The notes beneath the pieces were generated by a model, which saw only the letters and a program-made list of their open reading frames with translations, did no database searches and had not been told where the DNA came from. From assembly GCA_037383845.1 (NCBI GenBank), contig JARRON010000012.1:752-64751 (forward strand): a stretch of DNA of 64,000 nt. Reading direction: 5' to 3'. The position numbers and the translations under genes are program-made. Positions within the stretch are counted from its first letter, which is position 1. Each line of letters opens with the position of its first letter. Source of the stretch: Gammaproteobacteria bacterium (lineage in GTDB: Bacteria; Pseudomonadota; Gammaproteobacteria; Steroidobacterales; XN24). Of the stretch, positions 9,096 through 30,455 are shown in pieces.

Positions 9096-10692
9096 TCAGT
9101 GGTCCACTGCCGCCCCGGCACCTCTCGGCACCCGGATGTCTTCGATCAGGTGCTGGATGTGCTCCGGCGGGGGCGGCGTCAGCTTCATGACGATGGTCGC
9201 GATCACGAAGTTCACGATCATGCCGATGCTGCCGATGCCCTCCGGCGAGATGCCGAACAGCCAGTTGTCCGGCGTGTTCGCGCCGGGGTTGATGAACTTG
9301 AAGTAGACGATGTAGCCGAAAGTGAAGGCCAGGCCGGTGATCATGCCGGCGATCGCCCCTTCCTTGTTCATCCGCTTGGAGAAGATGCCCATGATGATCA
9401 CGGGGAAGAACGAGGCTGCGGCGAGGCCGAAGGCGAATGCCACCACCTGTGCCACGAATCCTGGTGGATTGATGCCGAAGTAGCCGGCCACCATGACCGC
9501 GAAGGCGGCCGCGATGCGGGCGTACAACAAGACCGCCGGCGGCCACCAGGGCTGTCACCCAGTTCGGCAGACCGCCGATCTCCGGGTTGGCGAGCACCAT
9601 GATGTCCCGGTCGACGTTCAGCTCGTTGGCCATGCCGTCCGGCGCGTTGGGCCCGCGGATCTGCACCCGGCCGTCGCCGTTCTTGTCCTCGAACTTGAGC
9701 AGACCCGTCTTCTCCCAGTTCGTGAACCACTCCGGAGCCTCCGCGTACGGGCTCTCGTTGATGGTCTGGATCAGGTTCGTGCGGGCGAAGGCCGCCACGG
9801 CGGGAGCCGTGGTGTAGAGCAGGGCGATGAACAGCAGCGCCCAGCCCGCGGACCGGCGGGCATCACGGACCTTGGGCACCGTGAAGAAGCGCACGATCAC
9901 GTGGGGCAGCCCGGCGGTGCCCACCATCAGCGCGAAGGTGATGGCGAACACGTCCACCATGGCTTTTGTGCCGTCTGTATAGGGCGTAAAGCCCAGCTCC
10001 GCGGTGAGGCCGTCCAGCCTGTCAAGGAGGTACACCCCCGAGCCGTCGGCCAGGGTGCTGCCGAAACCCAGCTGCGGGATCGGATTCCCGGTCATGAGCA
10101 GGGACAGGAAAATGGCCGGCACCAGGTAGGCGAAGATCAGCACGCAGTACTGGGCCACCTGGGTGTAGGTGATGCCTTTCATCCCGCCCAGCACGGCGTA
10201 GAAGAACACGATGGCCATGCCTATGAATACGCCGGTGTTGATATCCACTTCCAGGAAGCGGGAGAAGACGATGCCCACGCCGCGCATCTGTCCCGCCACG
10301 TACGTGAACGAGACGAAGATGGCGCAGACCACGGCCACCACCCGAGCGGTGCTGGAGTAGTAGCGGTCGCCGACGAACTCCGGCACGGTGAACTTGCCGA
10401 ACTTGCGCAGGTACGGCGCCAGCAGCAATGCCAGCAGGACGTAACCGCCGGTCCATCCCATCAGGTAGACAGCGCCGTCCCGGCCGATAAAGGCGATCAG
10501 GCCGGCCATGGAGATGAACGATGCCGCCGACATCCAGTCTGCAGCGGTCGCCATGCCGTTGGCCACGGGGTGCACGCCCCGGCCTGCCACGTAGAACGCA
10601 CCCGTGGTGGCGGCCTTGGCCCAGATGGCGATGCCGATGTAGATGGCAAAGGTAATGCCGACGACGATAAAAGTAAGCGTCTGAAGATCCAT
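9096..10692 (-). pseudogene. sodium:solute symporter of the DUF4212-associated (VC_2705/ActP-like) subfamily, reading frame broken near 9529
   Basis: Frame 1 (from ATG 10692) is protein-like for 388 codons, up to ..LPNWVTALVAAGGL, then turns into Arg/His/Gly junk. A second frame resumes at 9530 with LLYARIAAAFAVMVAGYFGINPPGFVAQVVAFAFGLAAASFFPVIIMGIFSKRMNKEGA.. and runs to the stop at 9096. The helix normally lying between these blocks is missing. Confidence 0.8.
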
Positions 10693-10704: not shown

Positions 10705-10968
<264 letters not shown>

Positions 10969-11218
10969 ATGCCCCTCCCCATGTTGTTGTAACCGGCGTG
11001 AATGCCGGGAGCGCAAGTGACGAACCGAATCTATCAGAGGGCGCCGGCGGGTGGTTCCCGACTTTAGTCGCAGGGCGGGGCACATGCTGCGGCGCGCCAT
11101 GAGTGACGAAGCGCTTTATCCTGCAGGCCGCACGGGATAGCATCCGTCGGACCGCACCGGCCGCCGCCATGGAAGGCCAGGTAAACCACCAACAAAAGCC
11201 GGGCGGGGAGGATGCGAG

Positions 11219-15156: not shown

Positions 15157-15813
15157 TCAGGATTCCTGGCCGATGTCGCTGATGCGCCGGGCGGCCACGG
15201 CGGCCTGGGTCCTGCTGCGCACCCCCAGCTTGCGGAAGATGGCCGTGACGTGGGCCTTGATAGTGGCCTCGGACACGTCAAGCTCCGCGGCGATCTGCTT
15301 GTTGAGCAGCCCATCGGCGAGCATGCTGAGCACGCGGAACTGCTGGGGCGTAAGGGAAGACACCCTTCGCGCCAGGTCCTCGTCCGGAGAGGGCTCGGTG
15401 GTGTCGAGGCCCATGGCCGATTCCGGAAGCCACAGTTCGCCGTCCAGGATGGCGCCGATGGCCTCGGAGATGGCTTCCAGGGTCGAGGACTTGGGGATGA
15501 AACCCGAGGCGCCGAAATCCACTGCGCGGCGCATGACCGCCGGATCACCGGCGGCGGAGACCACGACCACCGGAAGCGCCGGATACTGGTTGCGCAGCCA
15601 GGCCAGGGCCGAAAATCCCTGCGCCCCCGGCATGTCCAGGTCCAGCAGGACGAGATCCGCATCTTCGTTGACGGCCACGGCCGACTGGAGGGTGTCGAAG
15701 GAATCCGCCTCCACGAAATTCACGCCCGGCATCATGGGCCCGAGGGCCTGCTGCAGGGCCTCGCGGAAGAGCGGGTGGTCGTCGGCGACGATGATTCTGG
15801 CAGCTGCGCCCAT
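15157..15813 (-). CDS. crbR: NarL/FixJ-type response regulator (CrbR-like)
   Basis: 218 aa. Receiver domain: IIVADDHPLFREAL ... DLVLLDLDMPG ... PVVVVSA. LuxR HTH: LTPQQFRVLSMLADGLLNKQIAAELDVSEATIKAHVTAIFRKLGV. Lies between crbS and acs. Confidence 0.85.
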   Translation of the reverse strand: MGAAARIIVADDHPLFREALQQALGPMMPGVNFVEADSFDTLQSAVAVNEDADLVLLDLDMPGAQGFSALAWLRNQYPALPVVVVSAAGDPAVMRRAVDFGASGFIPKSSTLEAISEAIGAILDGELWLPESAMGLDTTEPSPDEDLARRVSSLTPQQFRVLSMLADGLLNKQIAAELDVSEATIKAHVTAIFRKLGVRSRTQAAVAARRISDIGQES

Positions 15814-15870: not shown

Positions 15871-17817
<1,947 letters not shown>

Positions 17818-18082
17818 GTTGACTCCTCCGGATTCCTTCTTTTCCTGCCGGGGCGGATTGGAACGTCAGTCTCGAACGCACCCCGGAGCCAGACCATTAG
17901 ACCTTTGTAGGGCCGATTTTTCTGCCCGCCCTTCCATCGCCGATAGGGCCTCTGGCTGTTGCATTTCCACAACACATAGAGTCAGGAGAATTACCTATGT
18001 AGAAGCGACGTCCGAGGGTCCAAGATGGGGACTGTGAATCCTGCTGCTTCCAAGGATTTGCCGTGGACTTTGACGGTATCTT

Positions 18083-18128
18083 GGCAACAGTGGCGCGACA
18101 GGCTCTGTTGCCTCGCAGCAACGTTTTT
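18083..18128 (+). promoter_or_regulatory. two mutually exclusive hairpins, the second followed by T5 (attenuator-like or orphan terminator)
   Basis: GGCAACAG (18083-18090) pairs with CTGTTGCC (18105-18112). GTTGC (18107-18111) pairs with GCAAC (18118-18122) and is followed by G-TTTTT (18123-18128). The two stems share 18107-18112. The second stem is short (5-6 bp). Confidence 0.3.
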
Positions 18129-18476
18129 AGACTTTTGACTAATAGCCAGGCGCCGGTGCAGTCCCCATGATGCGCCGTGCGATTGGCCCTAAAAGGCACG
18201 GGGGGATGTCTCCAGTCCCAGTCAGCGTCGGCCCGGGACGTCATGTCCGGCAGGCGGCGCTGGCGAAGAACTGACGGATTTTCCCCACGGCTTGTCCGGA
18301 GCCTGGTTCGCTTCTGGCGTTCCGGGCGCGCGGCGGATACGGGAGGTTTTACTGCCGCGCGGTTTGCGCCCTGCGAGGGGCAAAGGCCTGGGCCGTGCCC
18401 GGGCGGGGCGCCGGACGAACCGCTAGTGAGTCGAAACAGCCTTCGATCAAAAGAGTGACAATCACAGGAGACAGGC

Positions 18477-19556
18477 ATGCCTAGCAAGACTCGTCATATT
18501 TTCGCGGCAGCAGCCGCTGTGTCCCTCGCCGGAATTCTGGGTATGCCATCGGCCGCCCAGGCCGCCTGGCAGATCTCCGATGAGGACAGCAGCATCAAGT
18601 TCGGGTTCCTGGCGCAAATGCGCGCCGAAAGCGTTGATGCCGGATCCGCCGGCGATTCGAACGACCTCTTCTTCCGCAGGCTCCGGCTGCTGGCCGGCGG
18701 CAAGCTGAACGACAACTGGTCGTTCTTCTTCGAGACCGACAGCCCGAACATCGGCAAGGGCTCCGGCAGCGGCAAGGGCACCAGCGACGTCTATATCCAG
18801 GACTTCGTGGTGACCTACAAGCCCGGCGGCGACAGCTTCATGCTCGACTTCGGCATGCTGCTGAACGCGCTGACGTACAACTCGAACCAGTCCGCCGTGT
18901 CCCTGATGACCACCGACTACGCGCCGGTGAGCTTTGTGTGGTCCGGTCCCCTGGACGCGAGGGTCGGCCGTGACTACGGCGTACGCGCCCGCGGCTACCT
19001 GCTGGGCGACCGCCTCGAGTACCGCGCGTCCATCCTGGGCGGCAACCGGGACACCCGCGATGCCGATTACCGCTTCATGGGCCGGCTGGCGTTCAACGTC
19101 TTCACCGCCCAGAAGGGCCTGTTCTATTCCGGAACGACCCTGGGCAAGTCGCAGATCCTGGTGTTCGGCGCCAGCTATGACACCCAGGAAGACTACGAGG
19201 CCTACAGCGTGGACGCCCACTGGGACCAGCCCATTGGCAGCGGCTCCATCACCGTGTCCGGCGCCTGGAGCCACCTGGACGGCGACGACTTCCTGACCAG
19301 CCTGCCTGAGCAGGACAACATCTGGTTCGAGGCCGGCTGGTACTTCGGCGGCCTGAAGCTCATGCCCTTCTTCCAGTACACCGAGCGCGACTTTGACAGC
19401 GAGTCCCTGGCCGACGCGGAAACCATGCAGTTCGGTCTCGGATACATGTTCCGCGGCCATAACGGCAACGTGAAGTTCTCCTGGGCCACGACGGACGTCG
19501 ACGGTGCCGACGACATCGACACGTTCTGGATCAACCTCCAGGCCTTCAAGTTCTAG
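18477..19556 (+). CDS. outer-membrane porin (OprO/OprP-like beta-barrel)
   Basis: 359 aa; GGAGA SD. Signal peptide ...GMPSAAQA/AW. Alternating beta-strand pattern, LFFRRLRLLAGGKL motif, C-terminal aromatic residue (..NLQAFKF). Confidence 0.7.
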   Translation: MPSKTRHIFAAAAAVSLAGILGMPSAAQAAWQISDEDSSIKFGFLAQMRAESVDAGSAGDSNDLFFRRLRLLAGGKLNDNWSFFFETDSPNIGKGSGSGKGTSDVYIQDFVVTYKPGGDSFMLDFGMLLNALTYNSNQSAVSLMTTDYAPVSFVWSGPLDARVGRDYGVRARGYLLGDRLEYRASILGGNRDTRDADYRFMGRLAFNVFTAQKGLFYSGTTLGKSQILVFGASYDTQEDYEAYSVDAHWDQPIGSGSITVSGAWSHLDGDDFLTSLPEQDNIWFEAGWYFGGLKLMPFFQYTERDFDSESLADAETMQFGLGYMFRGHNGNVKFSWATTDVDGADDIDTFWINLQAFKF

Positions 19557-19723: not shown

Positions 19724-21514
19724 ATGACCGGAATCCTCGACCTGGCCGCCCCGCCTTTCGATGCCCTGTCGGCGCCCGAGCGGCGGCGGCTGCGGGAAGC
19801 CATTGGCGTGGCCAGCTTTGCCGCAGGCGACCTGGTGAAGGAGCGGGACGAGCGCTGGGAGAGCCTGTTCGTCGTTCTGCGGGGGCTCATCGAGGGGCGG
19901 GACGAGGCCGGCGAGCGCATCCGGCAGTTCGGTCCCGACGAGCTGGTCAGCGCCCGGGACCTGGTCCGCGGCGACCGGACCCGCCGCTTCGTGGCGGTCG
20001 AGCCTACCTCCTGCGTGGTGATTCCCCGCCAGGTCCTGGACCCCCTGGTACGCCGTAACACGCCGTTCCGGCTCGCCCTGGCGGAAGACCAGCCGTCCAT
20101 CACCCCCATGCCCCGGGGCGCTCCCAGCGACGCCGATGCCTTCACCCTCGCCCGGGTGGGCGACGCCCTGATCCGCAAGCCGGTCATCGCCGGGCCGGAG
20201 AAGGACCTGGCTTTCGGTGTGGAAGTGGTCATGGACCGCAAGGCGGACTGCCTGCTGGTCCGGCGCGGCGACGACATCGGCATCGTCACCGGCACGGATC
20301 TCCTGGGGGCGCTGGCCGACGGCAGCGGCACGGACCGCGCCCTTGCGGAGGTCGCCAGCTGGGACCTGATCACCGTCTCGCCCGACGATTTCCTCTTCGA
20401 TGCCCTGGTGAAGATGACCCGCCACAACATCGAGCGCGTCGTGGTGAAATCCGACGACGGGGTTGAGGGCATCCTGGAACTCACGGACGTCCTGGGCCTG
20501 TTCTCCACCCAGTCCCATTCCCTGGCGATCAGGATCGAGCGGGCCGAGTCCATCGAGGAGCTGGCGGCGGCCTCGGCGGCGATGACGGACCTGACCCGGA
20601 ACCTGGTGGACCGGGGCGTGGACATCGCCCTGGTGCTGGACCTGCTGTCGGCCCTCAACGCCCGCACCATGGCCCGGCTGTACCGCATGTGCGTGCCGGA
20701 GGAGGCCATGGACCGGAGCTGCCTGGTGGTGATGGGCAGCGAAGGCCGGGGAGAGCAGATCCTCAAGACCGACCAGGACAACGCCCTGATCGTCGCTGAC
20801 GACTTCGACTGGCCGGAGGTCAACCAGGCCATGGCGAAGTTCTCGGAGGAACTGGGCAAGCTGGGCTATCCGCCCTGTCCCGGCGGCTTCATGGTGTCGA
20901 ACCCCGACTGGGTCATGACCGCGTCCCAGTGGAGGGAGAAGCTCGAGGGATGGATCCGTTCCGCGGACGGGGACGCCATGCTCAATCTCACCGTCGTGTC
21001 GGATTTCCACCCCGTGGCCGGCCGGCGGGCACTGTTCGACGACCTCCAGGCCTGGCTGCTGGAGCGATTCCACGCAGGCATCGGCTTTATCTCTACCTTC
21101 GCCCGCCCGGTCCTCCAGTTCAGCGTGCCCCTGAATTTCTTCGGCCAGATCCGTAATCCGGACGAAGGCATCGATATCAAGAAAGGCGGCATCTTCCCGC
21201 TGGTGCACGGGGTGCGAACCATGGCCCTGGACGGACGCATCACGGAGACCAACACCTTCCGCCGCATTCGTCACCTGGTTGCCCGCGGCGTGCTCGATGC
21301 CCGCACCGGGGACGAACTGGCCCATGCCCTGGAGCTATTCATGGTGGTGCGGCTCCGGCAGCAGCTGGAGGCGATCGGCGCCGGCCGTGAGCCCGGCAAC
21401 GTGGTGCGCCCGGCGGGCCTGAACCGGCGGGAGCGTGAGCAGCTGCGAAGGGCCCTGCGGGTGGTGAAGGGCTTCCAGTCGACCCTTTCCCGCCGTTATC
21501 ACCTCGAAATCTGA
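19724..21514 (+). CDS. cNMP-binding-like + tandem CBS + DUF294 nucleotidyltransferase protein (paralog 1)
   Basis: ATG at 19724 inside ORF 19682..21514. Its N-terminus (PFDALSAPERRRLREAI) parallels that of paralog 2. CBS pair: ..KPVIAGPEKDLAFGVEVVMD.., ..WDLITVSPDDFLFDALVKMTRHNIERVVV. NTase core: CLVVMGSEGRGEQILKTDQDNALI. DUF294_C-like tail: GGIFPLVHGVRTMAL. Confidence 0.85.
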   Translation: MTGILDLAAPPFDALSAPERRRLREAIGVASFAAGDLVKERDERWESLFVVLRGLIEGRDEAGERIRQFGPDELVSARDLVRGDRTRRFVAVEPTSCVVIPRQVLDPLVRRNTPFRLALAEDQPSITPMPRGAPSDADAFTLARVGDALIRKPVIAGPEKDLAFGVEVVMDRKADCLLVRRGDDIGIVTGTDLLGALADGSGTDRALAEVASWDLITVSPDDFLFDALVKMTRHNIERVVVKSDDGVEGILELTDVLGLFSTQSHSLAIRIERAESIEELAAASAAMTDLTRNLVDRGVDIALVLDLLSALNARTMARLYRMCVPEEAMDRSCLVVMGSEGRGEQILKTDQDNALIVADDFDWPEVNQAMAKFSEELGKLGYPPCPGGFMVSNPDWVMTASQWREKLEGWIRSADGDAMLNLTVVSDFHPVAGRRALFDDLQAWLLERFHAGIGFISTFARPVLQFSVPLNFFGQIRNPDEGIDIKKGGIFPLVHGVRTMALDGRITETNTFRRIRHLVARGVLDARTGDELAHALELFMVVRLRQQLEAIGAGREPGNVVRPAGLNRREREQLRRALRVVKGFQSTLSRRYHLEI

Positions 21515-21585: not shown

Positions 21586-22329
21586 ATGACTGGACGCATC
21601 GCCCTGGTGACCGGGGGCACGGGCTGCATCGGCAGCGTAATCTGCGAGGAACTGGCCGGCCAGGGCTACCGGGTAGCGGCCAACTGCCATCCTTCAGACA
21701 GCGAGCGGGCCGCCGGATGGCGTGACGAAGCCGTAGAGCGCGGCCTGGACATTCGTCTGGAGCCCTTCGATGTCTCGGACTTCGAGTCCACTTCCGCGGG
21801 CGTGGAGCGGGTCGTGGAGGCGCTGGGCCCGGTGGACGTGCTGGTCAACGCCGCCGGAATTACCCGCGACGGCCGGCTGGTGAAGATGGAGCCCGCCCAG
21901 TGGCAGGCGGTGCTGCGCACAAATCTGGACAGCGTCTTCAACGCCACCAAGAACGTGATATCGGGGATGCTCTCGCGCGGCTTCGGTCGGGTCGTCAACA
22001 TCTCCTCGGTGAACGGCCAGCGCGGCCAGTTCGGCCAGGCCAACTATTCGGCCGCCAAGGCCGGCGTCCACGGATTCACCATGGCGGTGGCGCGGGAAGT
22101 GGCGCGAAAAGGCGTCACGGTCAATACCGTTTCGCCCGGCTACATCGACTCCCCGCTCATCATGCAGGTGCCGGAGGAGATCCGGGAGGGCATTCGCGAG
22201 TCCATTCCCATGGGGCGGTTCGGCAAGCCGCAGGAGATCGCCCGGGCCATCCTGTTCCTGGCCAGCGACGACGCGGGCTACATCACCGGTGCCGACCTTT
22301 CCGTGAACGGCGGCTACCACATGGACTAG
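21586..22329 (+). CDS. acetoacetyl-CoA reductase-like SDR (PhaB paralog 1)
   Basis: ATG at 21586 (GGAG 9 nt upstream). 247 aa: IALVTGGTGCIGS, NAAGITRDG, SSVNGQRGQFGQANYSAAKAG (YxxxK), VNTVSPGYI. Colinear with the canonical PhaB at 29503..30228 but clearly diverged. Confidence 0.8.
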   Translation: MTGRIALVTGGTGCIGSVICEELAGQGYRVAANCHPSDSERAAGWRDEAVERGLDIRLEPFDVSDFESTSAGVERVVEALGPVDVLVNAAGITRDGRLVKMEPAQWQAVLRTNLDSVFNATKNVISGMLSRGFGRVVNISSVNGQRGQFGQANYSAAKAGVHGFTMAVAREVARKGVTVNTVSPGYIDSPLIMQVPEEIREGIRESIPMGRFGKPQEIARAILFLASDDAGYITGADLSVNGGYHMD

Positions 22330-22338
22330 GGGACCCTC

Positions 22339-22821
22339 ATGGCAGAGCGCGTCATACGGAAATACGCCAACCGCAGGCTCTACGACCCGTCCCAGAGTCG
22401 CCATCTCACCCTGGACGAGGTTCGGCAACTTATCGTGAGCGGCGATCGGGTCCGGGTGGAGGACGCCCGGACCGGCGAGGACATCACTCGGAGCATCCTC
22501 CTGCAGATCATCGTCGAGCGGGAGGAGGCGGGCCGCCCCATGCTGTCGGCGGATCTCCTGGAGCAGCTCATACGCTTTTACGGCGGGGCCATGCAGGACT
22601 TCCTGGGCAACTACCTCGAACGCAGCGTGGATGCCTTCGTCAGCCAGCAGGAGCGGTTCCAGGACCAGCTGATGAAGCTGATGAGCGAGAATCCGCTGTC
22701 CGCCATGGCCGGCCTGGCGGAGCAGAACCTGGCCGCCTGGAAGGAGCTCCAGGAGCGGTTTCTCGGGATGGCGCCGCCGCGACCGCACAAAAAGCCCGGA
22801 AGCGAAGAAGACGATAAGTAA
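22339..22821 (+). CDS. phaR: polyhydroxyalkanoate synthesis repressor PhaR
   Basis: 160 aa. N-terminus IRKYANRRLYDPSQSRHLTLDEVRQLI..G..V.V.DARTGEDITRSILLQII is the hallmark PhaR DNA-binding region. Confidence 0.9.
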   Translation: MAERVIRKYANRRLYDPSQSRHLTLDEVRQLIVSGDRVRVEDARTGEDITRSILLQIIVEREEAGRPMLSADLLEQLIRFYGGAMQDFLGNYLERSVDAFVSQQERFQDQLMKLMSENPLSAMAGLAEQNLAAWKELQERFLGMAPPRPHKKPGSEEDDK

Positions 22822-22938: not shown

Positions 22939-23340
22939 ATGACATACGACTTTGATTCCTATATCTCCAAGGCGCGCGACGCCGCGACGCCCCTCATGGA
23001 GATGGGCGAGTACGGTTTCGACCTGTTCGAGAAAGGTTTCCAGTTCCAGGCTGAGCTTCTGGGCGACAGCATCGACTTCGTGGTCGACGAGCTGAAGATC
23101 TTTTCCACCGCCAGCGATCCCATGCAGTTCTTCCAGGCCCAGTCCAGGCTGGCCGAAGACTATGCCCTGCGCACCCAGAAGCGGGCGCAGGAACTGATGA
23201 AGGCCACCACGGAGAGCCAGCAGGCCATCACGGGCCTGGCGGAACGGAGCTTCAAGCGGGCCCAGAACGAGTTCGAGGAAGCTGTTACGACGGCGCAGGG
23301 CGCTGTGACGCCGAAGCCGGCGCGCAAGAAGGCCGCCTAG
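22939..23340 (+). CDS. phaP: phasin family protein
   Basis: 133 aa, helical and low-complexity, with Ala/Lys-rich tail (..TPKPARKKAA). Phasin-like core FQAQSRLAEDYALRTQKRAQELM. Sits between phaR and phaA. Confidence 0.75.
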   Translation: MTYDFDSYISKARDAATPLMEMGEYGFDLFEKGFQFQAELLGDSIDFVVDELKIFSTASDPMQFFQAQSRLAEDYALRTQKRAQELMKATTESQQAITGLAERSFKRAQNEFEEAVTTAQGAVTPKPARKKAA

Positions 23341-23499: not shown

Positions 23500-24690
23500 A
23501 TGAGCAACAACAGAGAAGTCGTCGTCGTATCGGCGGTACGCACTGCTATCGGAACCTACGGGGGCAGCCTGGCAGGAGTCCCGCCCACCCGTCTCGGCGC
23601 CCTGTGCGTGTCAGAGGCGGTCAAGCGCGCCGGCATCGAGCCGAGCGACGTGGGCCACGCCGTCTTCGGCAACGTCATCCACACCGAGCCCCGGGACATG
23701 TATATGGCCCGGGTCGTCGCCGTTGACGGCGGTCTTCCCGTAGAGACACCGTCCCTGACGGTGAACCGGCTCTGCGGCAGCGGCCTGCAGGCCGTGGTGT
23801 CCGCCGCGCAGCTCATCGCCGCCGGGGACACCGACTGCGCCGTGGCCGGCGGCGCCGAGTGCATGAGCCGGGGCCAGTACTGGCTGCCCGGGATGCGTTT
23901 CGGCCAGCGTCTCGGCGACGGCAAGGTGATCGATGCCATGGTAGGTGCGCTCACCGATCCCTTTGATGACTGCCACATGGGCATTACCGCGGAGAACGTG
24001 GCCGAGCGCTGGGGCATCAGCCGGGAGGACCAGGACAAGCTCGCGCTGGAAAGCCAGCAGCGGGCCGCCAGGGCCATCGAGGAAGGGCGGTTCGCAAGCC
24101 AGATCGTGCCGGTGGAGATCAAGGTCAAGCGAGAGACCAAACACTTCGACACCGACGAGCACGTGCGGGCCGGCACCAGCCTGGAATCTCTGGCCAAGCT
24201 CAGGCCCGCCTTCAAGGGCGACGGATCGGTAACCGCGGGCAACGCCTCGGGTCTCAACGACGGCGCCGCCGCCCTGGTCCTGATGGAACGCTCAGAGGCC
24301 GAGAAGCGGGGCCTGAAGCCCATGGCCCGGCTCGTGGGATACGGATTCGCGGGTGTGGAGCCGAAGTACATGGGGATCGGCCCCGTGCCGGCGACGAAGC
24401 GCCTGTTCGAGAAGACCGGGTTGTCGGTGGACGACATCCAGGTGTTCGAGGTCAACGAGGCCTTTGCCGCCCAGGCACTGGCGGTGGTGCGGGACCTGGG
24501 CCTTCCGGAGGACCGGACCAATCCCAACGGCAGCGGCATTTCCCTGGGCCACCCCATCGGGGCCACCGGCGCCATTATCACCGTGAAGGCCCTGTACGAG
24601 CTCGAGCGGGTGGAGGGCCAGCGGGCGCTGGTAACCATGTGCATCGGCGGCGGGCAGGGGATCGCCGCCATCTTCGAGCGGGTGAGCTAA
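23500..24690 (+). CDS. phaA: acetyl-CoA acetyltransferase (beta-ketothiolase)
   Basis: 396 aa thiolase II. Motifs: VNRLCGSGLQAV (active Cys), NASGLNDGAAALVLM, GHPIGATGA, MCIGGGQG. Confidence 0.93.
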   Translation: MSNNREVVVVSAVRTAIGTYGGSLAGVPPTRLGALCVSEAVKRAGIEPSDVGHAVFGNVIHTEPRDMYMARVVAVDGGLPVETPSLTVNRLCGSGLQAVVSAAQLIAAGDTDCAVAGGAECMSRGQYWLPGMRFGQRLGDGKVIDAMVGALTDPFDDCHMGITAENVAERWGISREDQDKLALESQQRAARAIEEGRFASQIVPVEIKVKRETKHFDTDEHVRAGTSLESLAKLRPAFKGDGSVTAGNASGLNDGAAALVLMERSEAEKRGLKPMARLVGYGFAGVEPKYMGIGPVPATKRLFEKTGLSVDDIQVFEVNEAFAAQALAVVRDLGLPEDRTNPNGSGISLGHPIGATGAIITVKALYELERVEGQRALVTMCIGGGQGIAAIFERVS

Positions 24691-24712
24691 AGTGGCTGTC
24701 GCGGAGGACATC

Positions 24713-26446
24713 ATGCTGAAGAACCTGAAGCCGGCGAACATCCGGACACAGTACGAGATGGCGCGACTCATGGCGGGCCTGTCCACCGACGTGGGCAGGG
24801 CCTACGCCCAGTGGATGGCGGCCCTGGCCACCCACCCCCGCTTTCTGATGGGTCATTCCCTCGGCCTGGCGGCGGACTACCTGAGCATCAGCAGGGATCT
24901 GCTGCTCCGGTCGGCGGGCCGTCCGGTCAACGGCTCCGGCGCCAACGGCTCGACCGACCGGCGGTTTAAAGGCGAGGCCTGGGAGAAGCGGCCGGTGTTT
25001 AACGCCGTGCGCGATGCCTGGCACGCCACCACGAACACCGCCCTGTCCCTGGCGGACGAGCCGCCGGGACTGGACGCCGACACGGCCCGGAAACTGAAGT
25101 TCTTCACCTCCCAGTTCCTCGATGCCGTGGCGCCCAGCAACTTCCCGCTGAGCAATCCCGAGGTCCTCGCCGAGACCCGGTCCTCGAAGGGCGCCAATTT
25201 CCTGTCCGGTCTCCGCCACCTCTGGTCGGACCTGGATCTGCAGCACGGTCAGCTAAAGATCAGCATGTCGGACCTGGGCGCGTTCGAAGTGGGCAAGAAT
25301 CTCGCCGTCACCCCGGGCAAGGTGGTGTACGAAAACGAGGTCATGCAGCTGATCCAGTATGAGCCCACCACGCCGAAGGTTTTCCGCCGGCCGCTTCTCA
25401 TCCTGCCGCCGTGGCTTAACAAGTACTACGTGCTGGACATGCAGCCGGCCAACTCCGTCGTGCGCTGGCTGGTGGAGCAGGGGCATACCGTGTTCCTGAT
25501 TTCCTGGGTCAACCCCGATGGCCACACGCCGGACAAGACCTTCGACGAGTACCTGACCGAGGGGCCGGTGGAGGCCATGGAGGTCATCGAGGAAATCACC
25601 GGCCAGAAGGAAATCAACGCCATGGGCTACTGCCTCGGCGGCATCCTGCTGGCGACCCTGCTGGCCTGGCTGGAGGAGAAGGGCCAGCGGCCCATCAAGT
25701 CCGCCACCTTCCTGACGACCCTGATCGACTACTCCGACGTAGGCGACATCAAGGTTTTCCTGAGCGAAGACCTGGTCAAGCGCCTGGAGAGGGTCGGCGC
25801 CCAGAAGGGGTTCATACCGGGTGAGAACGTCTCATGGGGGTTCCGGATGCTGCGTGCGCCGGATCTCATCTGGTCGTTCGTCATCAATCACTATCTCCTC
25901 GGCAAGCCGCGGGTGCCCTTCGACCTGCTTTACTGGAACGAGGACGCCACCAACATGCCGGTGGCCTGCCACACCTGGTACATGCGCAACATGTACCTGA
26001 ACAACCGGCTGCGGGAACCGGGCGCCCTGACGGTGGCCGGGGAGCCCATCGACGTCACCAGCATCAAGACGCCGACCTACATCCTGGCCACCCGGGACGA
26101 CCACATCGCGCCGTGGAAGACATGCTACGAGTCCACGCAGCTCTTCGGCGGGCCGAACCGGTTCGTGCTGGGGTACTCGGGCCACATCGCCGGCGTGATC
26201 AATCCCCCCACCAAGATGAAGTACGGCTACCGGGTGGGCAAGCAGAACCCCGAGGATGCGGAGGCCTGGTTCGAGAAGGCCGAGGAGCACGAAGGCAGCT
26301 GGTGGGTTGACTGGGGCAAGTGGCTGAAGCGCTACGGCGGCGGCCAGGTGAAGGCCCGGGAGCCCGGCAGCGAGGACTACCCGCCCATCGAGGACGCGCC
26401 GGGTTCCTTCGTGAAGAAGACGTTGAAGGATACCCACAAGAGCTAG
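24713..26446 (+). CDS. phaC: class I poly(3-hydroxyalkanoate) synthase
   Basis: ORF 24692..26446. ATG at 24713 follows GGAGGA; GTG at 24692 is the alternative start. Lipase box GYCLGG. Other motifs: NKYYVLDMQP.NS, WNEDATNMP, GYSGHIAGVINPP. Confidence 0.93.
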   Translation: MLKNLKPANIRTQYEMARLMAGLSTDVGRAYAQWMAALATHPRFLMGHSLGLAADYLSISRDLLLRSAGRPVNGSGANGSTDRRFKGEAWEKRPVFNAVRDAWHATTNTALSLADEPPGLDADTARKLKFFTSQFLDAVAPSNFPLSNPEVLAETRSSKGANFLSGLRHLWSDLDLQHGQLKISMSDLGAFEVGKNLAVTPGKVVYENEVMQLIQYEPTTPKVFRRPLLILPPWLNKYYVLDMQPANSVVRWLVEQGHTVFLISWVNPDGHTPDKTFDEYLTEGPVEAMEVIEEITGQKEINAMGYCLGGILLATLLAWLEEKGQRPIKSATFLTTLIDYSDVGDIKVFLSEDLVKRLERVGAQKGFIPGENVSWGFRMLRAPDLIWSFVINHYLLGKPRVPFDLLYWNEDATNMPVACHTWYMRNMYLNNRLREPGALTVAGEPIDVTSIKTPTYILATRDDHIAPWKTCYESTQLFGGPNRFVLGYSGHIAGVINPPTKMKYGYRVGKQNPEDAEAWFEKAEEHEGSWWVDWGKWLKRYGGGQVKAREPGSEDYPPIEDAPGSFVKKTLKDTHKS

Positions 26447-26467: not shown

Positions 26468-27088
26468 ATGTTCATCCGGCCGCTGCGGATTGCCACGGAT
26501 CGCTGGCGGCAGCGCAGCGGGCCGTGGGCCGGCCTGTTCGAGCCCTATCGCGGGGACGAGGTGGTCTCGCTGGACTGCGAGACCTCCGGCATGGATCCGA
26601 AGGAGGCGGACATCCTGTCCGTGGCCGCAGTGCGCGTCACCGGACGCCGCATCCTGACCAGCGAGGCCCTGGACGTGCACGTCGCCGCGCCGGAGGAGAT
26701 GGATCCGGAGTCCATCCGGGTACATCGCCTGCGCCGGGCCGACCTTGCCGGAGGGCTGCCCCTGGCCGACGCCCTGGAGCAGATCCTGAACTTTGTCGGG
26801 AACCGGCCCCTGCTCGGCTATAACGTGCGTTTCGACGGCGCGCTCCTGGACCGCGCCCTCCGGACCCACTTCGGCTTCGGGCTGCCCAACCGCCTCGTCG
26901 AGCTGTCGGAGGTGTACCTGGAACGCCTGGGTCACCACGACCACGGTGCGGAGGCCGACCTGCGGCTGGAGACCATCGCCCGCCGGCTCGACATGCCCGT
27001 TCCGCGGGGCCGGCACACGGCGCTGAACGACGCCGTTTTCACCGCCGCGCTCTGGGTGCGGCTGAGGCACGGGGGCCGGCCCCAGTGA
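26468..27088 (+). CDS. DEDDh 3'-5' exonuclease (DnaQ/RNase T fold)
   Basis: 206 aa. ExoI VVSLDCETSG, ExoII LLGYNVRFDGALL, ExoIII HTALNDAVFTA. Its stop overlaps the next gene's start. Confidence 0.8.
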   Translation: MFIRPLRIATDRWRQRSGPWAGLFEPYRGDEVVSLDCETSGMDPKEADILSVAAVRVTGRRILTSEALDVHVAAPEEMDPESIRVHRLRRADLAGGLPLADALEQILNFVGNRPLLGYNVRFDGALLDRALRTHFGFGLPNRLVELSEVYLERLGHHDHGAEADLRLETIARRLDMPVPRGRHTALNDAVFTAALWVRLRHGGRPQ

Positions 27089-27651
27089 ACCCCGCCGCCG
27101 GCTGGCGACACAGGCGGCTCGCCGACCGGCTGGAGACATTTGTTCCCGACCCGGCGCGCTACCCCGAGGATGCGCTCGGGGTGGAAGTCTGCCGGGAAGC
27201 GCTGGCTGCCCTGGCCGAGGGCAATTACGGCATCGGCGCCGTCATCGCGGACCGCGCCGGGCGCGTGGTGGTCCGTGCCCGGAACCGGGTGTTCGAGCCC
27301 CGCTTCGCCAGCGACGGCCATGCGGAGATGATGGCGGTGTCGGAGCTGGAGTCTGCCGGCCGGGGCCGGGAGGCGCCGGACCTGACCCTGGTGGCGACCC
27401 TTGAGCCCTGTCCCATGTGCTACACGCGCCTGAAGATCTCCGGGATGGGGCGGGTCCTGTATCTCGCCGACGACCCCGACGGGGGCATGGTCCACGCCGC
27501 CGACGGGCTGCCCCGGATCTGGGCGCTGCTGCGCCCTGGCCAGGAATTCCGGCGGGCCCGGGTATCACCCGAACTGGTTCGCCTGGCCCGGGCGATGTTC
27601 CGGTCCAACCTTCGGGCGCTGCGAGCGAAACTCGTGGGTGCCGCCGGCTAG
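27085..27651 (+). CDS. CDA-fold zinc nucleoside/nucleotide deaminase (TadA/guanine-deaminase-like)
   Basis: 188 aa. GTG at 27085 overlaps the exonuclease TGA (GTGA). Zinc site: DGHAEMMAV ... LEPCPMCYTRL (HAE ... PCxxC). Confidence 0.8.
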   Translation: MNPAAGWRHRRLADRLETFVPDPARYPEDALGVEVCREALAALAEGNYGIGAVIADRAGRVVVRARNRVFEPRFASDGHAEMMAVSELESAGRGREAPDLTLVATLEPCPMCYTRLKISGMGRVLYLADDPDGGMVHAADGLPRIWALLRPGQEFRRARVSPELVRLARAMFRSNLRALRAKLVGAAG

Positions 27652-29471
27652 AGCCCGTAGCGGCGCTGGAGGAAATCCCGGAAGTCCCGCACGGTCCGGA
27701 AGGCTTCCCGGAGCAGCTGGGTCTCCCCGGAGGACAGCCGCTCGGTGTGCACGATGTTCGCCGTGCCGGCCGGGATACGGCTCGCGTCCACCTCTTCGAG
27801 CCGTGCCAGCTGCTGGCCCAGGCGGATCTGGTTCAGCACCGTGAAGGCCTCGGAGAGATTCCCGGCCAGCTCCTCGTCGAGGACGGCCGCATCCCGCAGG
27901 CCCTCCAGGCGAAGAAACGTATTAGAGGCTTCCAGGCTGTGCTCCAGGGCCAGGGTCCGGGCGCCGTGGACGATGGGAAAAATGCCGTGGCGCTTCACGT
28001 CGATCTCCCGGCCCCGTCCGCCGGAGTCGTAGAACGGCGGCGGGGCGCCCGCCTCCACCGCCGGCCAGGCCAGGCGGCCGAAGAAGGCCTGGCCCCGGCT
28101 CAGGTGCTCGTACAGGTATTCCCTGAGCGGTTCGAACAGCTCGGCGTTGCCGCCCACGGGGGTGGCGTCGAGGAACGCGGACAGGCTGTAAATGGCGTCC
28201 TCGTCCCGGGGCGAGGCCCAGGCTTCCAGGCGCTGCTGCCACTGTTCCGCGGACAGGCGCCACTCCGGGTTGCTCACCAGGATCCCGCGCTCGGACGGGG
28301 GATAACCCAGCGCCTGCATGCGCAGGGTGAAAGACTCCAGGGCGGGGCCGCAATCGGGCCAGCTGTTCTCGCCCGCCAGGATGAGGGCGTGATTCTGGTC
28401 CGTGCGCATGACCTGCTCGCCCCGTCCCTCGCTCCCCAGCACCAGCAGGCAGCTTTCCTCGGCCACGCCGGCAGGCGTCGTCAGATGGAAGTGACGGCCG
28501 ATGATGCGCCGGTGGAGGACGGCGAGAAGGTCCATGATGAAGCGGATGCCCACCCGCTGGGCGAACAGGGAACGCGCCAGGTCCGGGATGGCCGCCGAGG
28601 CTTTTCGAAGGCTTTCGAAGCTGTCGGCCTGGGCAACCCGGAGCGCGATGACGTGACTGTGGCTGGAAAGAAAGCCCAGGATGTCGGCCAGCTCCACCAG
28701 GCCCGCGGGACGTCCCTCGTCCATCACCACCAGGCGCTCGATCCCGGCGCCGGTCATGCGGATCAGGGCGTCAAAGAGGAAGTCTCCCTCGTTGACAGTG
28801 ACCAGGTTCCAGCTGGCGACGTCGCCCACCGGAGCATCGAGGCCGTGGTGCTGTAGCGCGAGCGCTTCCAGCAAATCGGTCCGGGTGACGATGCCCCAGT
28901 CTCCCTCCCCCCGGCGCACCAGCAGGCTGTCCACCCGGCTGACGCGCATCTGCTCCACGGCGTCCCGCAGGTCCGTTGAATCGGGGATGACCACGGCGGA
29001 GCGCATGCACTCATCGTTCACCCGGGCCATGTTGAAGCTGACCAGGTCGCGATAGGCGCCGCTCTGGGCCACCAGCTTGGTCTTGGTGGCCAGGTCCCGG
29101 TAGAAGAATCCGCCGAACTCGGCGTTCTCGTTTACCAGGTCCAGGAAGGTCTTACGGGGTGCCAGGTGACAGAGAGTGTCCTCCATGGCGACGTAGCGGT
29201 GGCGCGCCCGGCCGCGCAGCAGGGCGAGGAAGCCGAACAGCTCCCCGGCCCGGTACCGGGCGACGGCGGAATCCCCGTCGCTGCCCGCCGGATCGGATTC
29301 CTCCACAAGACCCTTGTCCACCACGTACAGCGAACTGGTCTCGCTGCCCGGCTCGATGATGACCTCGCCGGAGGGGAAGAACTGGATGTCCATGGCCGAC
29401 AGGAGGCGCTCCCGTTCCTCCGCGCTCAGCAGGGAAAAAGGCGGCTGGCCCGTGTCGAAATCCGCGTACAT
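27648..29471 (-). CDS. cNMP-binding-like + tandem CBS + DUF294 nucleotidyltransferase protein (paralog 2)
   Basis: 607 aa. cNMP-like region: FPSGEVIIEPGSETSSLYVVDKGLVEE, ELFGFLALL. CBS pair: SAVVIPDSTDLRDAVEQMRVSRVDSLLV; WNLVTVNEGDFLFDALIRMTGAGIERLVV. NTase core: CLLVLGSEGRGEQVMRTDQNHALI. Tail: HGIFPIVHGARTLAL. Confidence 0.85.
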   Translation of the reverse strand: MYADFDTGQPPFSLLSAEERERLLSAMDIQFFPSGEVIIEPGSETSSLYVVDKGLVEESDPAGSDGDSAVARYRAGELFGFLALLRGRARHRYVAMEDTLCHLAPRKTFLDLVNENAEFGGFFYRDLATKTKLVAQSGAYRDLVSFNMARVNDECMRSAVVIPDSTDLRDAVEQMRVSRVDSLLVRRGEGDWGIVTRTDLLEALALQHHGLDAPVGDVASWNLVTVNEGDFLFDALIRMTGAGIERLVVMDEGRPAGLVELADILGFLSSHSHVIALRVAQADSFESLRKASAAIPDLARSLFAQRVGIRFIMDLLAVLHRRIIGRHFHLTTPAGVAEESCLLVLGSEGRGEQVMRTDQNHALILAGENSWPDCGPALESFTLRMQALGYPPSERGILVSNPEWRLSAEQWQQRLEAWASPRDEDAIYSLSAFLDATPVGGNAELFEPLREYLYEHLSRGQAFFGRLAWPAVEAGAPPPFYDSGGRGREIDVKRHGIFPIVHGARTLALEHSLEASNTFLRLEGLRDAAVLDEELAGNLSEAFTVLNQIRLGQQLARLEEVDASRIPAGTANIVHTERLSSGETQLLREAFRTVRDFRDFLQRRYGL

Positions 29472-29502: not shown

Positions 29503-30228
29503 TCAGTACATGTGCTGGCCGCCGTTGATGGAGATGGTCGAGCCGGTCATGAAATCGGCGCGGTCGGAGACGAGGAACATCACTGCCCGCACGATGTCCG
29601 AAGGCTCACCCAGGCGACCCACCGGGATGCTCTGGATGATCTTCTCCAGGACCTTCTCCGGCACCGCCTGCACCATTTCGGTGTTGACGTAGCCGGGCGC
29701 CACGGCGTTTACGGTGATGTTGCACTTCGCGCCTTCCAGCGCCAGCGCCTTGGTGAAGCCGTGCATCCCGGACTTGGCGGCCGCGTAGTTCACCTGGCCG
29801 TATTGTCCGGCCTGGCCGTTCACCGAGCCGATGTTGACGATGCGCCCGAACTTGCGTTCCCGCATGCCCTCGATGACGTGGCGGCACATGTTGAAGCAGC
29901 TGGTGAGATTGGTGCGGATGACGTCGTCCCACTGCTGGGGAGTCATCCGGTGCAGGGTACCGTCCCGGGTGATGCCGGCGTTGTTGACGAGCACATCCAC
30001 CGGCCCCAGGGCTTCCCCGATTTCTTCGACGCCTTTCTGGCTGGCCTCGAAATCGCCGACGTCGAAGCGGAACGTCCGGATGCCGGTGCGTTCCTCGAAG
30101 GCCTTGGCCTTGTCGACGCTGCCGAAGAAGTTGGCGGCCACCTTGTAGCCGGCTTCTTTGAGCGCTTCGGAGATGGCTCCGCCTATGCCCCGGGTCCCCC
30201 CCGTGACGATTGCTACCCGTCCAGTCAT
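29503..30228 (-). CDS. phaB: acetoacetyl-CoA reductase
   Basis: 241 aa canonical PhaB. Motifs: VAIVTGGTRGIGGAI, NNAGITRDG, GSVNGQAGQYGQVNYAAAKSG, VNAVAPGYV, INGGQHMY. Confidence 0.92.
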   Translation of the reverse strand: MTGRVAIVTGGTRGIGGAISEALKEAGYKVAANFFGSVDKAKAFEERTGIRTFRFDVGDFEASQKGVEEIGEALGPVDVLVNNAGITRDGTLHRMTPQQWDDVIRTNLTSCFNMCRHVIEGMRERKFGRIVNIGSVNGQAGQYGQVNYAAAKSGMHGFTKALALEGAKCNITVNAVAPGYVNTEMVQAVPEKVLEKIIQSIPVGRLGEPSDIVRAVMFLVSDRADFMTGSTISINGGQHMY

Positions 30229-30455
30229 CGCTTGATTCTCCCTGCGTTCACACCGATATGCCGGCGAACCCGGGTCCGCCGGGTGGCCTCCAACTATGGA
30301 CGCCGCTACATACCTTTACTACCCGGCGAACGTCTAAAATTCATGCTGCACCGCAGCCAGTCGAGGAGGCCGGTGTTGCTGCATCGCGGCGGCTTGCCTA
30401 ACCTGTCGCGCCAACCTGTTCTTTTCGCGGCATCCCGCCCAGGAGCTCTATCCGC

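Follow-up and report, generated by a model that had tools for sequence, protein, structure and literature searches.

The locus described here lies in a window of 64,000 nt (the whole stretch of DNA that was analysed) from contig JARRON010000012.1 of an uncultured gammaproteobacterium, in which genes were obtained by GC3-based gene calling and families were assigned with Pfam. A first-pass annotation of this sequence had reported three of its genes as an uncharacterised module inside the polyhydroxyalkanoate (PHA) locus: a DEDDh exonuclease (exo), a zinc deaminase of the cytidine deaminase (CDA) fold and a 607-aa DUF294 protein, called DUF294_2 here. All three open reading frames (ORFs) are present at the positions given there (Table 1), and profile searches confirm the RNase_T, dCMP_cyt_deam_1, cyclic nucleoside monophosphate (cNMP)-binding, CBS, DUF294 and DUF294_C domains. 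Comparison with related loci places these genes in a unit of four, DUF294_1 > exo > deaminase < DUF294_2, and shows this unit to be a lineage-specific extension of a known pair, the CrbS/CrbR-regulated DUF294-exonuclease pair. The grouping of the three genes is thus conserved and not a product of chance, but the module has a fourth member, DUF294_1 (19724-21514), which had been missed. DUF294_1 is the canonical and ancestral partner of exo and is now split from it by the phaBRPAC genes.

Relatives of the locus were collected from metagenomes by means of a DNA pattern (AAYTAYGGNRTNGGNGC-N79-CAYGCNGARATG) that is selective for the deaminase family and represents its signature (NYG[VI]GA, 26 residues, HAEM). 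The scan yielded 120 loci and, together with six from exact look-up, 126 related loci (numbered with the prefix L) were annotated by tblastn with the window proteins. The genes occur in them in five states. State C3 (ten loci; nine lineages at 90% identity) has a contiguous DUF294_1-exo-deaminase-<DUF294_2 beside acs, crbR and crbS, without pha genes. Gene calling shows C3 in L207 (a 1.77-Mb contig), L208, L210, L211 and L215 as well, and the upstream order of L215 (SSF-DUF4212-crbS-crbR-acs) is that of the window. State C1 (the window and two loci) reads acs-porin-DUF294_1-phaBRPAC-exo-deaminase-<DUF294_2-<phaB2. State C2 (six loci, four lineages) reads acs-porin-phaBRPAC-deaminase-<phaB2, with neither exo nor the DUF294 genes, and state C4 (two loci) consists of (phaC-)exo-deaminase. 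The fifth state comprises about 95 deaminase homologues from soil metagenomes, 34-48% identical, with no conserved neighbour. DUF294_1 stands immediately 5' of exo in ten metagenome loci and in L207, L208, L210, L211 and L215; in the window five pha genes (about 4.9 kb) separate the two. Because the pha operon lies between DUF294_1 and exo there, exo and the deaminase follow phaC without a detectable terminator and DUF294_2 follows a second phaB. The placement of the module inside the PHA locus, as first annotated, holds for the window lineage, but the module is not intrinsic to that locus, since most relatives have it without pha genes.

Genes for crbS, crbR, acs and an acetate-type permease adjoin the unit in the window (8977-17817) and in L207, L208, L210, L212, L213 and L215. 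Two of these, on Neptunomonas-like and Halomonas contigs (L212 and L213), have the DUF294-exo pair beside crbS and the permease without the deaminase. The exo copies in related loci are 54-82% identical to the window exo. Across a whole clade of deaminases the deaminase adjoins exo, and DUF294-exo lies beside crbS/crbR/acs in all loci examined. The earlier statement that DUF294-exonuclease pairs recur beside acs/actP-type genes agrees with every locus examined and with published work (PMC9927547, PMC8402216, PMC9765439). A lack of enrichment near acs or pha genes had been named as a sign of fortuitous juxtaposition; in every locus examined DUF294-exo is found beside acs genes. Chance juxtaposition is contradicted by the conserved gene order, the conserved gene overlap and the promoter boxes (both described below) at a fixed site beside crbS-crbR-acs.

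The stop codon of exo and the start codon of the deaminase share GTGA at 27085-27088, as had been read earlier in the sequence. The two genes overlap by 4 nt (as ATGA, GTGA or TTGA) in 17 of 17 C1 and C3 loci, over which deaminase identity ranges from 53 to 100%. At the other end of the deaminase, its stop codon and that of DUF294_2 share CTAG at 27648-27651. This sharing, also pointed out before, can be read in the window sequence but its exact form is not conserved among relatives. The convergent ends are always tight: according to the gene calls they overlap by 4 nt in the window and by 16 nt in five relatives, and in L208 36 nt lie between them.

In the deaminase tree, all exo-, pha- or acs-linked deaminases form one clade, with the exception of that of L101, which branches outside. 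C4 branches at the base of this clade, C3 forms a paraphyletic group, and C1 and C2 nest as sisters of each other. This branching order indicates that the exo-deaminase adjacency is ancestral and that C2 is derived. The nucleotide sequence confirms this, as two C2 loci carry traces of exo: L003 has GCGCACGCGATGAGCCCC before the deaminase ATG, the same string as in the C3 exo-stop/deaminase-start junction (CGCACGCGATGAGCCCGT in L207), and L005 retains GATGTGAGCC before the deaminase, a relic of the exo 3' end. Therefore, C2 lost DUF294_1, exo and DUF294_2 together and kept the deaminase. The joint loss suggests that the three missing genes work together as a functional unit. The deaminase is separable, since this sub-lineage retains it after phaC where exo and both DUF294 genes are deleted, and it reads as having value without them.

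The outlying locus L101 (SPJJ01033551.1, 151-7155) carries a 38%-identical deaminase directly upstream of an acs that is 75% identical to that of the window. The deaminase gene also has a porin, an SSF-type sensor kinase of 882 aa and a response regulator as neighbours.

Table 1. Genes and predicted CrbR-like boxes of the locus, in window coordinates.
Feature	Position	Strand	Basis and remarks
SSF-family permease (ActP-like acetate/solute symporter)	8977..10692	-	Pfam SSF E 2e-35; same gene adjoins crbS in L212, L213, L215
DUF4212 small membrane protein, SSF permease partner	10705..11100	-	Pfam DUF4212 E 3e-35; pairing also in L212, L213, L215
CrbS/MxtR-type hybrid sensor kinase, 1307 aa (SSF-like membrane domain, PAS, HisKA, HATPase, REC)	11219..15142	+	Pfam
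CrbR/ErdR-type response regulator (REC + GerE/LuxR helix-turn-helix)	15157..15813	-	Pfam; 75-80% identical copies in related loci
Acetyl-CoA synthetase Acs	15871..17817	-	Pfam ACAS_N, AMP-binding, AMP-binding_C; 75-86% identity in related loci
CrbR-like box 1, TTAGACCTTTGTA	17897..17909	+	80 nt upstream of acs start
CrbR-like box 2, TTAGACTTTTGACTAATAG	18127..18145	+	Upstream of porin > DUF294_1 transcription unit
Porin (Porin_O_P-like)	18477..19556	+	Pfam; porin at same position in L001, L003, L005, L207, L208
DUF294_1 (cNMP-like + CBS + DUF294 + DUF294_C)	19724..21514	+	Pfam DUF294 139 bits, DUF294_C 159 bits
phaB1, acetoacetyl-CoA reductase-type short-chain dehydrogenase/reductase (SDR)	21586..22329	+	Pfam adh_short/adh_short_C2; ORF opens 21526, start uncertain
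phaR, PHA synthesis regulator	22339..22821	+	Pfam PHB_acc_N, PHB_acc
Phasin	22939..23340	+	Pfam Phasin_2; then terminator-like hairpin 23359-23377 (terminator scan)
phaA, beta-ketothiolase	23500..24690	+	Pfam Thiolase_N, Thiolase_C
phaC, PHA synthase	24692..26446	+	Pfam PhaC_N; 21-nt gap to exo
exo, DEDDh 3'-5' exonuclease, PRK09145 family, 206 aa	26468..27088	+	Pfam RNase_T E 4e-16; NCBIfam equivalog NF006601
TadA-like CDA-fold zinc deaminase, 188 aa	27085..27651	+	Pfam dCMP_cyt_deam_1 E 3e-13; HAE, PCPMC
DUF294_2 (cNMP-like + CBS pair + DUF294 + DUF294_C), 607 aa	27648..29471	-	Pfam; convergent with deaminase
phaB2, second acetoacetyl-CoA reductase-type SDR	29503..30228	-	Pfam; 31 nt upstream of DUF294_2, same strand
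CrbR-like box 3, TTAGACGTTCGCC(GGGTAG)	30325..30337	-	Upstream of phaB2 > DUF294_2

DUF294_1 and DUF294_2 each match the cNMP_binding, CBS, DUF294 and DUF294_C models of Pfam, DUF294_1 with the higher scores, and DUF294_2 shows two CBS stretches. Pfam defines DUF294 by the motif G-S-x10-D-x-D, through which nucleotidyltransferases of the pol-beta superfamily bind metal. DUF294_1 reads TDQD, with G-S-x10-D-Q-D intact. The corresponding motif of DUF294_2 is GSEGRGEQVMRTDQNH; it reads GSEGRGEQVMRTDQN and not TDQD, the second catalytic Asp of DxD being Asn (TDQN). The core 'GSEGRGEQ..TDQD' that had been ascribed to the 607-aa protein is therefore absent from it, and TDQD belongs to DUF294_1, the protein that the annotation did not mention.

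The orthologues of DUF294_2 form 22 clusters with 56-100% identity, and other DUF294 proteins are at most 42% identical. All 22 of these clusters have Dx[S/N/T] (D-Q-[S/N/T]) at the catalytic position, and DQD is found in 96 of 97 other DUF294 hits and in every DUF294_1. In the tree the Dx[S/N/T] proteins make up one monophyletic clade, and DUF294_1 groups with the DQD proteins. The DUF294_2 subfamily also has changes at otherwise invariant positions (G306R/K, N320H, C393S, G395R and R584L), and the DIKKGG of canonical DUF294 has become D[VI]K[RHQ][HFY]G in it; its sensor domains, GSEGRGEQ, D358 and D435 are still invariant. The Asp loss in DUF294_2 is of single origin with the rest of the protein conserved, and it looks like neofunctionalisation rather than decay. 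The deaminase adjoins all four of the four DUF294_2 orthologues that were looked up independently of it, as well as those of 13 scan loci. As a divergent paralogue without DxD, DUF294_2 is unlikely to be the transferase of a ligand-gated transfer/removal switch, the kind of system that had first been suggested for these genes; the proposed tie to acetate and PHA metabolism is backed by the putative CrbR-type boxes described below.

A distant Asp-less DUF294 protein (P0143; DQN, 49% identical to DUF294_2) is encoded at 1248-9266 of L209 (GCA_029976255.1, JARPNU010008783.1). The operon there consists of an SDR, a response regulator, a 710-aa PAS-RNase_T fusion, a small ORF, a 911-aa histidine kinase and the DUF294 gene. 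In this context an Asp-less DUF294 is again linked to an RNase_T domain, in another architecture and with a two-component system of its own.

The AlphaFold2 (AF2) model of DUF294_2 has a predicted local distance difference test score (pLDDT) of 84.6. In a Foldseek search with this model, the best match is the AMPylation domain of DrrA (6yx5_B, E 1.2e-8, TMt 0.66, 345 columns), followed by both domains of GlnE (3k7d, 1v4a). The modelled nucleotidyltransferase fold and its helical substrate-binding domain can be superposed on GlnE or DrrA. On the basis of these fold matches, DUF294 is best described as a sensor-gated, GlnE/DrrA-like nucleotidyltransferase.

The exonuclease carries the motifs DCETSG, YNVRFD and HTALNDA and scores 227 bits against the NF006601/PRK09145 equivalog (cutoff 189). 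In addition, it gives a generic match to the CRISPR-associated DEDDh model of PADLOC.

In the deaminase, the CDA zinc and catalytic residues are present; H79-A-E81 and P108-C-P-M-C112 are invariant across the family, which also has the signature GNYG[VI]GA. Homologues with 47% identity or more make up about 66 clusters of 191-aa proteins, whose only sources are metagenomes and gammaproteobacterial metagenome-assembled genomes (MAGs); below 47% identity there is a sharp drop to TadA-like proteins. In an exhaustive search of representatives, the exo-linked clade amounts to one or two clusters at 50% identity and the wider full-length family to about 227 such clusters (E up to 1e-10). NCBI names for cluster members are only 'deaminase' or 'nucleoside deaminase'. 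Among the matches listed from a scan of genome contigs with the deaminase alignment (LEPCPMC, HAEM) no member of the family was present; these were generic TadA-like proteins, the best identity being 37%.

The AF2 model of the deaminase (pLDDT 93) has an extra N-terminal helix and a C-terminal helix pair. Foldseek against the PDB places TadA structures first (2nx8, 7cph and the RNA complex 2b3j; TMt 0.72-0.84) and plant guanosine deaminase after them, and by sequence profile the protein aligns with E. coli TadA over positions 26-185. Its pI is 9.6 and that of its C-terminal 40 residues is 12. Against the TadA equivalog model NF008113 it reaches 28.6 bits versus a cutoff of 150. The deaminase thus has a TadA-like fold yet, as far as sequence goes, is not TadA. 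It had been considered beforehand that it might be the ordinary tadA or guanine deaminase of the genome, unlinked to the other genes; this low score and the conserved linkage speak otherwise, and both an ordinary tadA and a guanine deaminase are inconsistent with the conservation and the model scores. The NCBIfam model for anti-phage dCTP deaminase is matched with E 0.0013, far below its cutoff.

A wider TadA-like family of 190-240 aa with the signature GNYG[VI]GA...HAEM...LEPCPMC..R is common in soil metagenomes. It accounts for about 95 of the loci L087-L206 (for example L096, L104 and L157), with 34-48% identity to the window protein, and neighbour clustering for these soil-type loci revealed no conserved partner.

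ErdR/CrbR is reported to bind an imperfect inverted repeat, GACNNNNGTC, of which TTAGACGATTGTC is an example (bioRxiv 10.64898/2026.09.07.749794). The 64 kb of the window hold three TTAGAC sites, and all of them lie in two promoter regions of the locus: two in the acs|porin intergenic region (17897 and 18127) and one upstream of phaB2 > DUF294_2 (30332, minus strand). In L001, L003, L005, L207 and L210 the acs-proximal intergenic region has box 1 conserved in the form cATTAGACnnnnGTC; in L208 this box is degenerate. Box 2 is conserved as TTAGACnnnnGaCTAATA in the same five loci and in L208, and in L210 it stands directly upstream of DUF294_1. L126 has two TTAGAC sites at positions matching boxes 1 and 2. 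Box 3 is conserved as cTTAGACnnnCGnnGGGTGGC upstream of phaB2 in L003, L005, L138 and L191, the scan of L191 having covered only the region upstream of phaB2. In the seven larger loci that were fully scanned TTAGAC is confined to box positions. In the loci of 10-21 kb with box 3 it is nearly confined to these promoter regions; L138 has an extra copy 15 nt from the box. A strict CrbR motif, [GT]ACNNNNGT[CA], applied to the window alone gives 25 matches and none before DUF294_1, and the extended TTAGAC boxes emerged only from the cross-locus comparison. In silico, the boxes (TTAGAC-N4-GNC) match the published ErdR/CrbR site. With these conserved boxes the locus looks like a CrbS/R-controlled island leading from acetate through acetyl-CoA to polyhydroxybutyrate (PHB), into which the module appears to be wired.

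A different element, TGG[AC]ATTGACA, is conserved about 25 nt before the DUF294_2 start in the contiguous loci (regions L207 9812-10000, L208 9796-10000, L210 5707-6000 and L211 131-269). It is unlike the TTAGAC boxes and may be a separate promoter.

Regarding the surrounding genes, sensor kinases of the same architecture as that of the window (1309-1313 aa) flank the module in L207, L208 and L215. The terminator scan finds a terminator-like hairpin at 19592-19607, directly after the porin gene. The ORF of DUF294_1 opens at GTG 19682 (19682-21514, 610 aa), and a hairpin with a 13-bp stem and a T-rich tail at 19678-19709 covers this first GTG. Because the element overlaps GTG 19682, the likelier start of DUF294_1 is probably ATG 19724. 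Together with the hairpin at 19592, that at 19678-19709 may attenuate read-through from the porin gene. From phaA through phaC and exo to the deaminase no terminator-like site was found in the terminator scan; a scan for sigma-70 promoters found nothing, and terminator-like sites are not enriched. The phaB1 gene is 77-86% identical in C1 and C2 loci. phaB2 is 83-85% identical in C2 loci, where it comes directly after the deaminase and is convergent with it; in the window phaB2 and DUF294_2 are probably co-transcribed. No mobility genes flank the unit in the window, L207, L208 or L215, and Rfam detects no RNA gene, structured RNA or fluoride riboswitch in the window.

Just past phaB2 lies a deoxyhypusine-synthase-like gene (30456-31433), which is conserved in L003 (11457-13563) and L005 (11446-14312). 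The C2 relatives add a PAD_porph (agmatine deiminase-type) gene beside it, which suggests a polyamine-related unit adjoining the PHA locus. A CrcB-like ORF, identified by eye, and then a 117-aa ORF follow at 31441-32188, 7 nt after the deoxyhypusine-synthase-like gene. Further on, a 135-aa ORF with several CxxC pairs (zinc-ribbon-like) is present at 35328-35735; its neighbours are a 202-aa ORF and an ORF 56% identical to an L005 gene with Pfam Acyltransferase. A phosphoketolase gene (XFP_N, XFP, XFP_C) at 42988-45390, 13 kb downstream, encodes another producer of acetyl phosphate or acetyl units in the region.

The best overall explanation of the unit, to which we give an even chance, is a CrbR-controlled, gated four-gene module for nucleotidylyl transfer and removal, the mechanism of which we infer as follows. 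When acetate-type substrates are available, CrbR~P would bind the TTAGAC-N4-GNC boxes and switch on acs, the porin/DUF294_1(-pha-exo-deaminase) unit and phaB2/DUF294_2. DUF294_1 would then act as a GlnE/DrrA-like nucleotidyltransferase, gated by a ligand through its cNMP-like domain and adenylate-sensing CBS pair, and would place a nucleoside monophosphate (NMP), probably AMP, on a target that is most likely a protein of acetyl-CoA metabolism. The DEDDh enzyme would be the eraser and hydrolyse the phosphodiester, with the target hydroxyl in the role of the 3'-OH leaving group. The deaminase, kept at a fixed ratio to exo by the 4-nt overlap, would deaminate the base of the transferred or released nucleotide. 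DUF294_2, which has lost the metal-binding Asp and kept its sensors and the remainder of the fold, may be a sensor, either without catalysis or with altered chemistry, by which the exo-deaminase side is modulated. A more elaborate scheme would make the unit a writer, eraser, editor and sensor of a nucleotide mark, in which DUF294 adenylylates a protein (or an RNA end) from acetyl-CoA/PHA metabolism, the DEDDh enzyme removes the adenylate, the deaminase converts the attached adenylate to inosinate and the Asp-less DUF294 reads or gates the mark; in this full form we think it improbable.

Several observations weigh against the transfer/removal explanation. The relation of DUF294 to GlnE and DrrA is seen in a predicted model only; in sequence searches of the PDB, neither DUF294_2 nor a profile built from its catalytic half gave matches beyond those to cNMP and CBS domains. 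The canonical Glu of the phosphate-binding cassette is absent from the cNMP-like domains, as read by eye in the sequence, so the ligand may not be a cyclic nucleotide. We know of no precedent for a DEDDh de-NMPylase, and the nearest characterised relatives of this enzyme act on nucleic acids. The nearest structures of the deaminase are tRNA deaminases, which together with its strongly basic C-terminal helix pair points to a polynucleotide rather than a protein-bound substrate. Nor is the unit uniform: the two basal C4 loci have gaps of 8 and 18 nt between exo and deaminase in place of the 4-nt overlap, L109 is without DUF294_2, and in C3 loci DUF294_2 has no TTAGAC box. The deaminase stands alone after phaC in the four non-redundant lineages of C2 and beside acs in L101, with neither exo nor DUF294, from which it follows that it is not strictly dependent on the other three genes. 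All relatives are metagenome or MAG contigs, and the trees are neighbour-joining trees without support values. Finally, deletion of PP_0353 or PP_0354, the exonuclease and DUF294 genes of the Pseudomonas putida pair, caused mild defects only, on propionate and pyruvate (bioRxiv 10.64898/2026.09.07.749794).

Part of this evidence would fit a module directed at RNA, in which the end or loop of a tRNA or small RNA would be tailed by DUF294_1, trimmed by the DEDDh enzyme and edited by the TadA-like enzyme, so as to tune translation or RNA stability on the switch to acetate-type substrates. All three enzyme classes have archetypes in tRNA processing, namely CCA-adding enzyme, RNase T and TadA. The exonuclease is a member of the RNase_T/DnaQ family, in both sequence and fold the deaminase matches tRNA adenosine deaminases best, among them that of the TadA-RNA complex 2b3j, and the protein is basic (pI 9.6-11.2), with C-terminal helices of pI about 12 that resemble the tRNA-binding helix of TadA. 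RNase T-like roles on RNA have also been raised for PP_0353 (bioRxiv 10.64898/2026.09.07.749794). However, DrrA and GlnE, and not CCA-adding enzymes or poly(A) polymerases, are the best matches to the predicted catalytic half of DUF294. The deaminase stays below the cutoff of the TadA equivalog (28.6 vs 150 bits) and has an N-terminal helix more, and the Rfam search of the window gave neither RNA genes nor structured RNAs. We consider an RNA-directed module, and with it the tuning of translation or RNA stability, doubtful, though it deserves to be kept in mind. About the same may be said of the deaminase as an independent metabolic enzyme that would use a free nucleotide, nucleoside or base of the purine or pyrimidine type, for example to remove the AMP released by Acs with each acetate that it activates, and that rides on the exo or phaC transcript with a substrate different from that of DUF294 and exo. 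Its retention right behind phaC in a lineage that has deleted exo and both DUF294 genes would be expected of such an enzyme, as would the 38%-identical homologue of L101 directly upstream of acs and beside an SSF-type kinase; an acs/pha neighbourhood is the common denominator of the contexts in the clade, free guanine/guanosine enzymes of the CDA fold are the next-best structural matches, and the family (about 227 clusters, with about 95 soil loci without conserved neighbours) looks like that of a housekeeping-type enzyme. This independence is difficult to reconcile with an exo overlap that is kept in 17 of 17 loci over 53-100% identity, and with DUF294_2 orthologues that lie beside the deaminase in every case (4/4 independent and 13 scan loci); moreover, no deaminase of the CDA fold that uses free AMP or adenosine is known to us.

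The nucleotidyltransferase fold and the cNMP-like and CBS sensor domains could also belong to a system in which DUF294 synthesises a nucleotide second messenger, the exonuclease degrades it and the deaminase inactivates it. DEDD-family enzymes do degrade short signalling oligonucleotides, but the predicted fold matches GlnE/DrrA and not synthases of the cGAS/CD-NTase type, the nucleotide-signalling defence models of PADLOC miss the deaminase and both DUF294 proteins, and no effector gene is conserved nearby in L207, L208 and L215, which makes such a messenger very improbable in our judgement. A fortuitous juxtaposition, or a mobile anti-phage defence island inserted in the PHA locus, is barely credible: the generic match of exo to the CRISPR-associated DEDDh model and the occurrence of deaminases in some defence systems (the NCBIfam anti-phage dCTP deaminase model gives E 0.0013, far below cutoff) are set against gene order, 4-nt overlap and promoter boxes conserved in many lineages at a fixed site beside crbS-crbR-acs, the lack of any PADLOC match for the deaminase or DUF294, and the absence of flanking mobility genes. 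A defence island is inconsistent with the conservation and the model scores.

It has been reported that the DUF294-exonuclease pair is conserved beside acs/actP in many gammaproteobacteria, and its function is described as unknown (PMC8402216, PMC9927547). The uncharacterised CrbS/R-regulated pair is thus already known; new here are its extension by the deaminase and the Asp-less paralogue and the position of the pha operon inside it. In the literature searched on CrbS/CrbR and PA3232/PA3233 no deaminase partner is mentioned, and neither the deaminase and the Asp-less paralogue as conserved additions nor a pha operon inside the unit was found described; a whole-word literature search for DUF294 plus exonuclease found nothing. 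The predicted fold of the DUF294 catalytic half, which would be that of protein AMPylators, offers a handle on the role of the pair. If co-translation of exo and the deaminase is obligatory, as is possible, then their shared substrate would carry a deaminable base, probably adenine. DUF294_2, with sensors kept and catalytic Asp lost, amounts to a natural separation-of-function allele. In the window lineage, the system is tied to carbon storage by the position of exo and the deaminase behind phaC, from which no terminator-like site separates them. Should reversible nucleotidylylation prove true, it would be a new post-translational layer of control over acetate assimilation and PHA synthesis, and an RNA-directed module would be a carbon-source-regulated system of RNA editing and trimming. 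If the unit handles a nucleotide mark, a DEDDh de-AMPylase and CDA-fold editing of a non-polynucleotide adenylate would both be new activities.

The closest known system is PP_0354/PP_0353 of P. putida KT2440, a pair of DUF294 and RNase_T-type exonuclease genes in the regulon of MxtR/ErdR (CrbS/CrbR), a two-component system for acetate and short-chain fatty acids (PMC8402216, PMC9927547). ErdR binds the promoter of the pair, acetate induces it, and it is among the genes most dependent on MxtR/ErdR (PMC8402216, PMC9927547, bioRxiv 10.64898/2026.09.07.749794). Its function is unknown according to the authors, who suggested protein modification or RNase T-like roles (bioRxiv 10.64898/2026.09.07.749794). 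In P. aeruginosa, PA3232-PA3235 are up about 16-fold on propionate (PMC9765439), PA3233/PA3232 being the corresponding pair. DUF294_1 has the same architecture as its P. putida counterpart (cNMP-like, two CBS, DUF294, DUF294_C), exo belongs to the same family (NF006601), and the neighbourhood of crbS, crbR, acs and an acetate-type permease, as well as ErdR-type boxes upstream, are shared. In contrast to P. putida, the locus described here adds a coupled TadA-like deaminase and a convergent DUF294 paralogue without DxD, its DUF294_1 and exo are about 4.9 kb apart with pha genes between them, and its regulation by CrbR is predicted from sequence only.

With TadA, the deaminase shares the CDA fold, the HAE and PCxxC zinc ligands and a near full-length alignment to the E. 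coli protein, the basic C-terminal helix included. It differs from TadA in scoring under the TadA cutoff, in its extra N-terminal and second C-terminal helix, in the GNYG[VI]GA signature and in being a locus-specific and probably non-housekeeping protein. Among the defence systems in PADLOC-DB 2.0, there is no match for the deaminase, DUF294_1 or DUF294_2, and exo has generic DEDDh matches only.

The GlnD/PII switch, which has been invoked for PP_0354 (bioRxiv 10.64898/2026.09.07.749794), provides a conceptual model of metabolite-gated, reversible nucleotidylylation. Unlike the unit considered here, GlnD has its own HD-domain removal activity and ACT sensors, and no gene for a PII-like target is linked to our locus. 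The likeness to GlnE and to DrrA (SidM) of Legionella lies in the predicted fold of the DUF294 + DUF294_C half and in the G-S-x10-D-x-D motif of DUF294_1; the G-x(9-13)-D-x-D pattern is present in DUF294_1 (TDQD) and absent in DUF294_2 (TDQN) and its 22 orthologue clusters. Unlike GlnE and DrrA, DUF294 carries N-terminal cNMP-like and CBS sensors, and no sequence-level similarity to solved structures was detected for it. GlnE combines two paralogous nucleotidyltransferase modules with opposite roles, and both of its domains keep DxD. In the unit described here, by contrast, the two modules are separate proteins, one of which has lost the catalytic Asp, and the presumed eraser is a DEDDh hydrolase.

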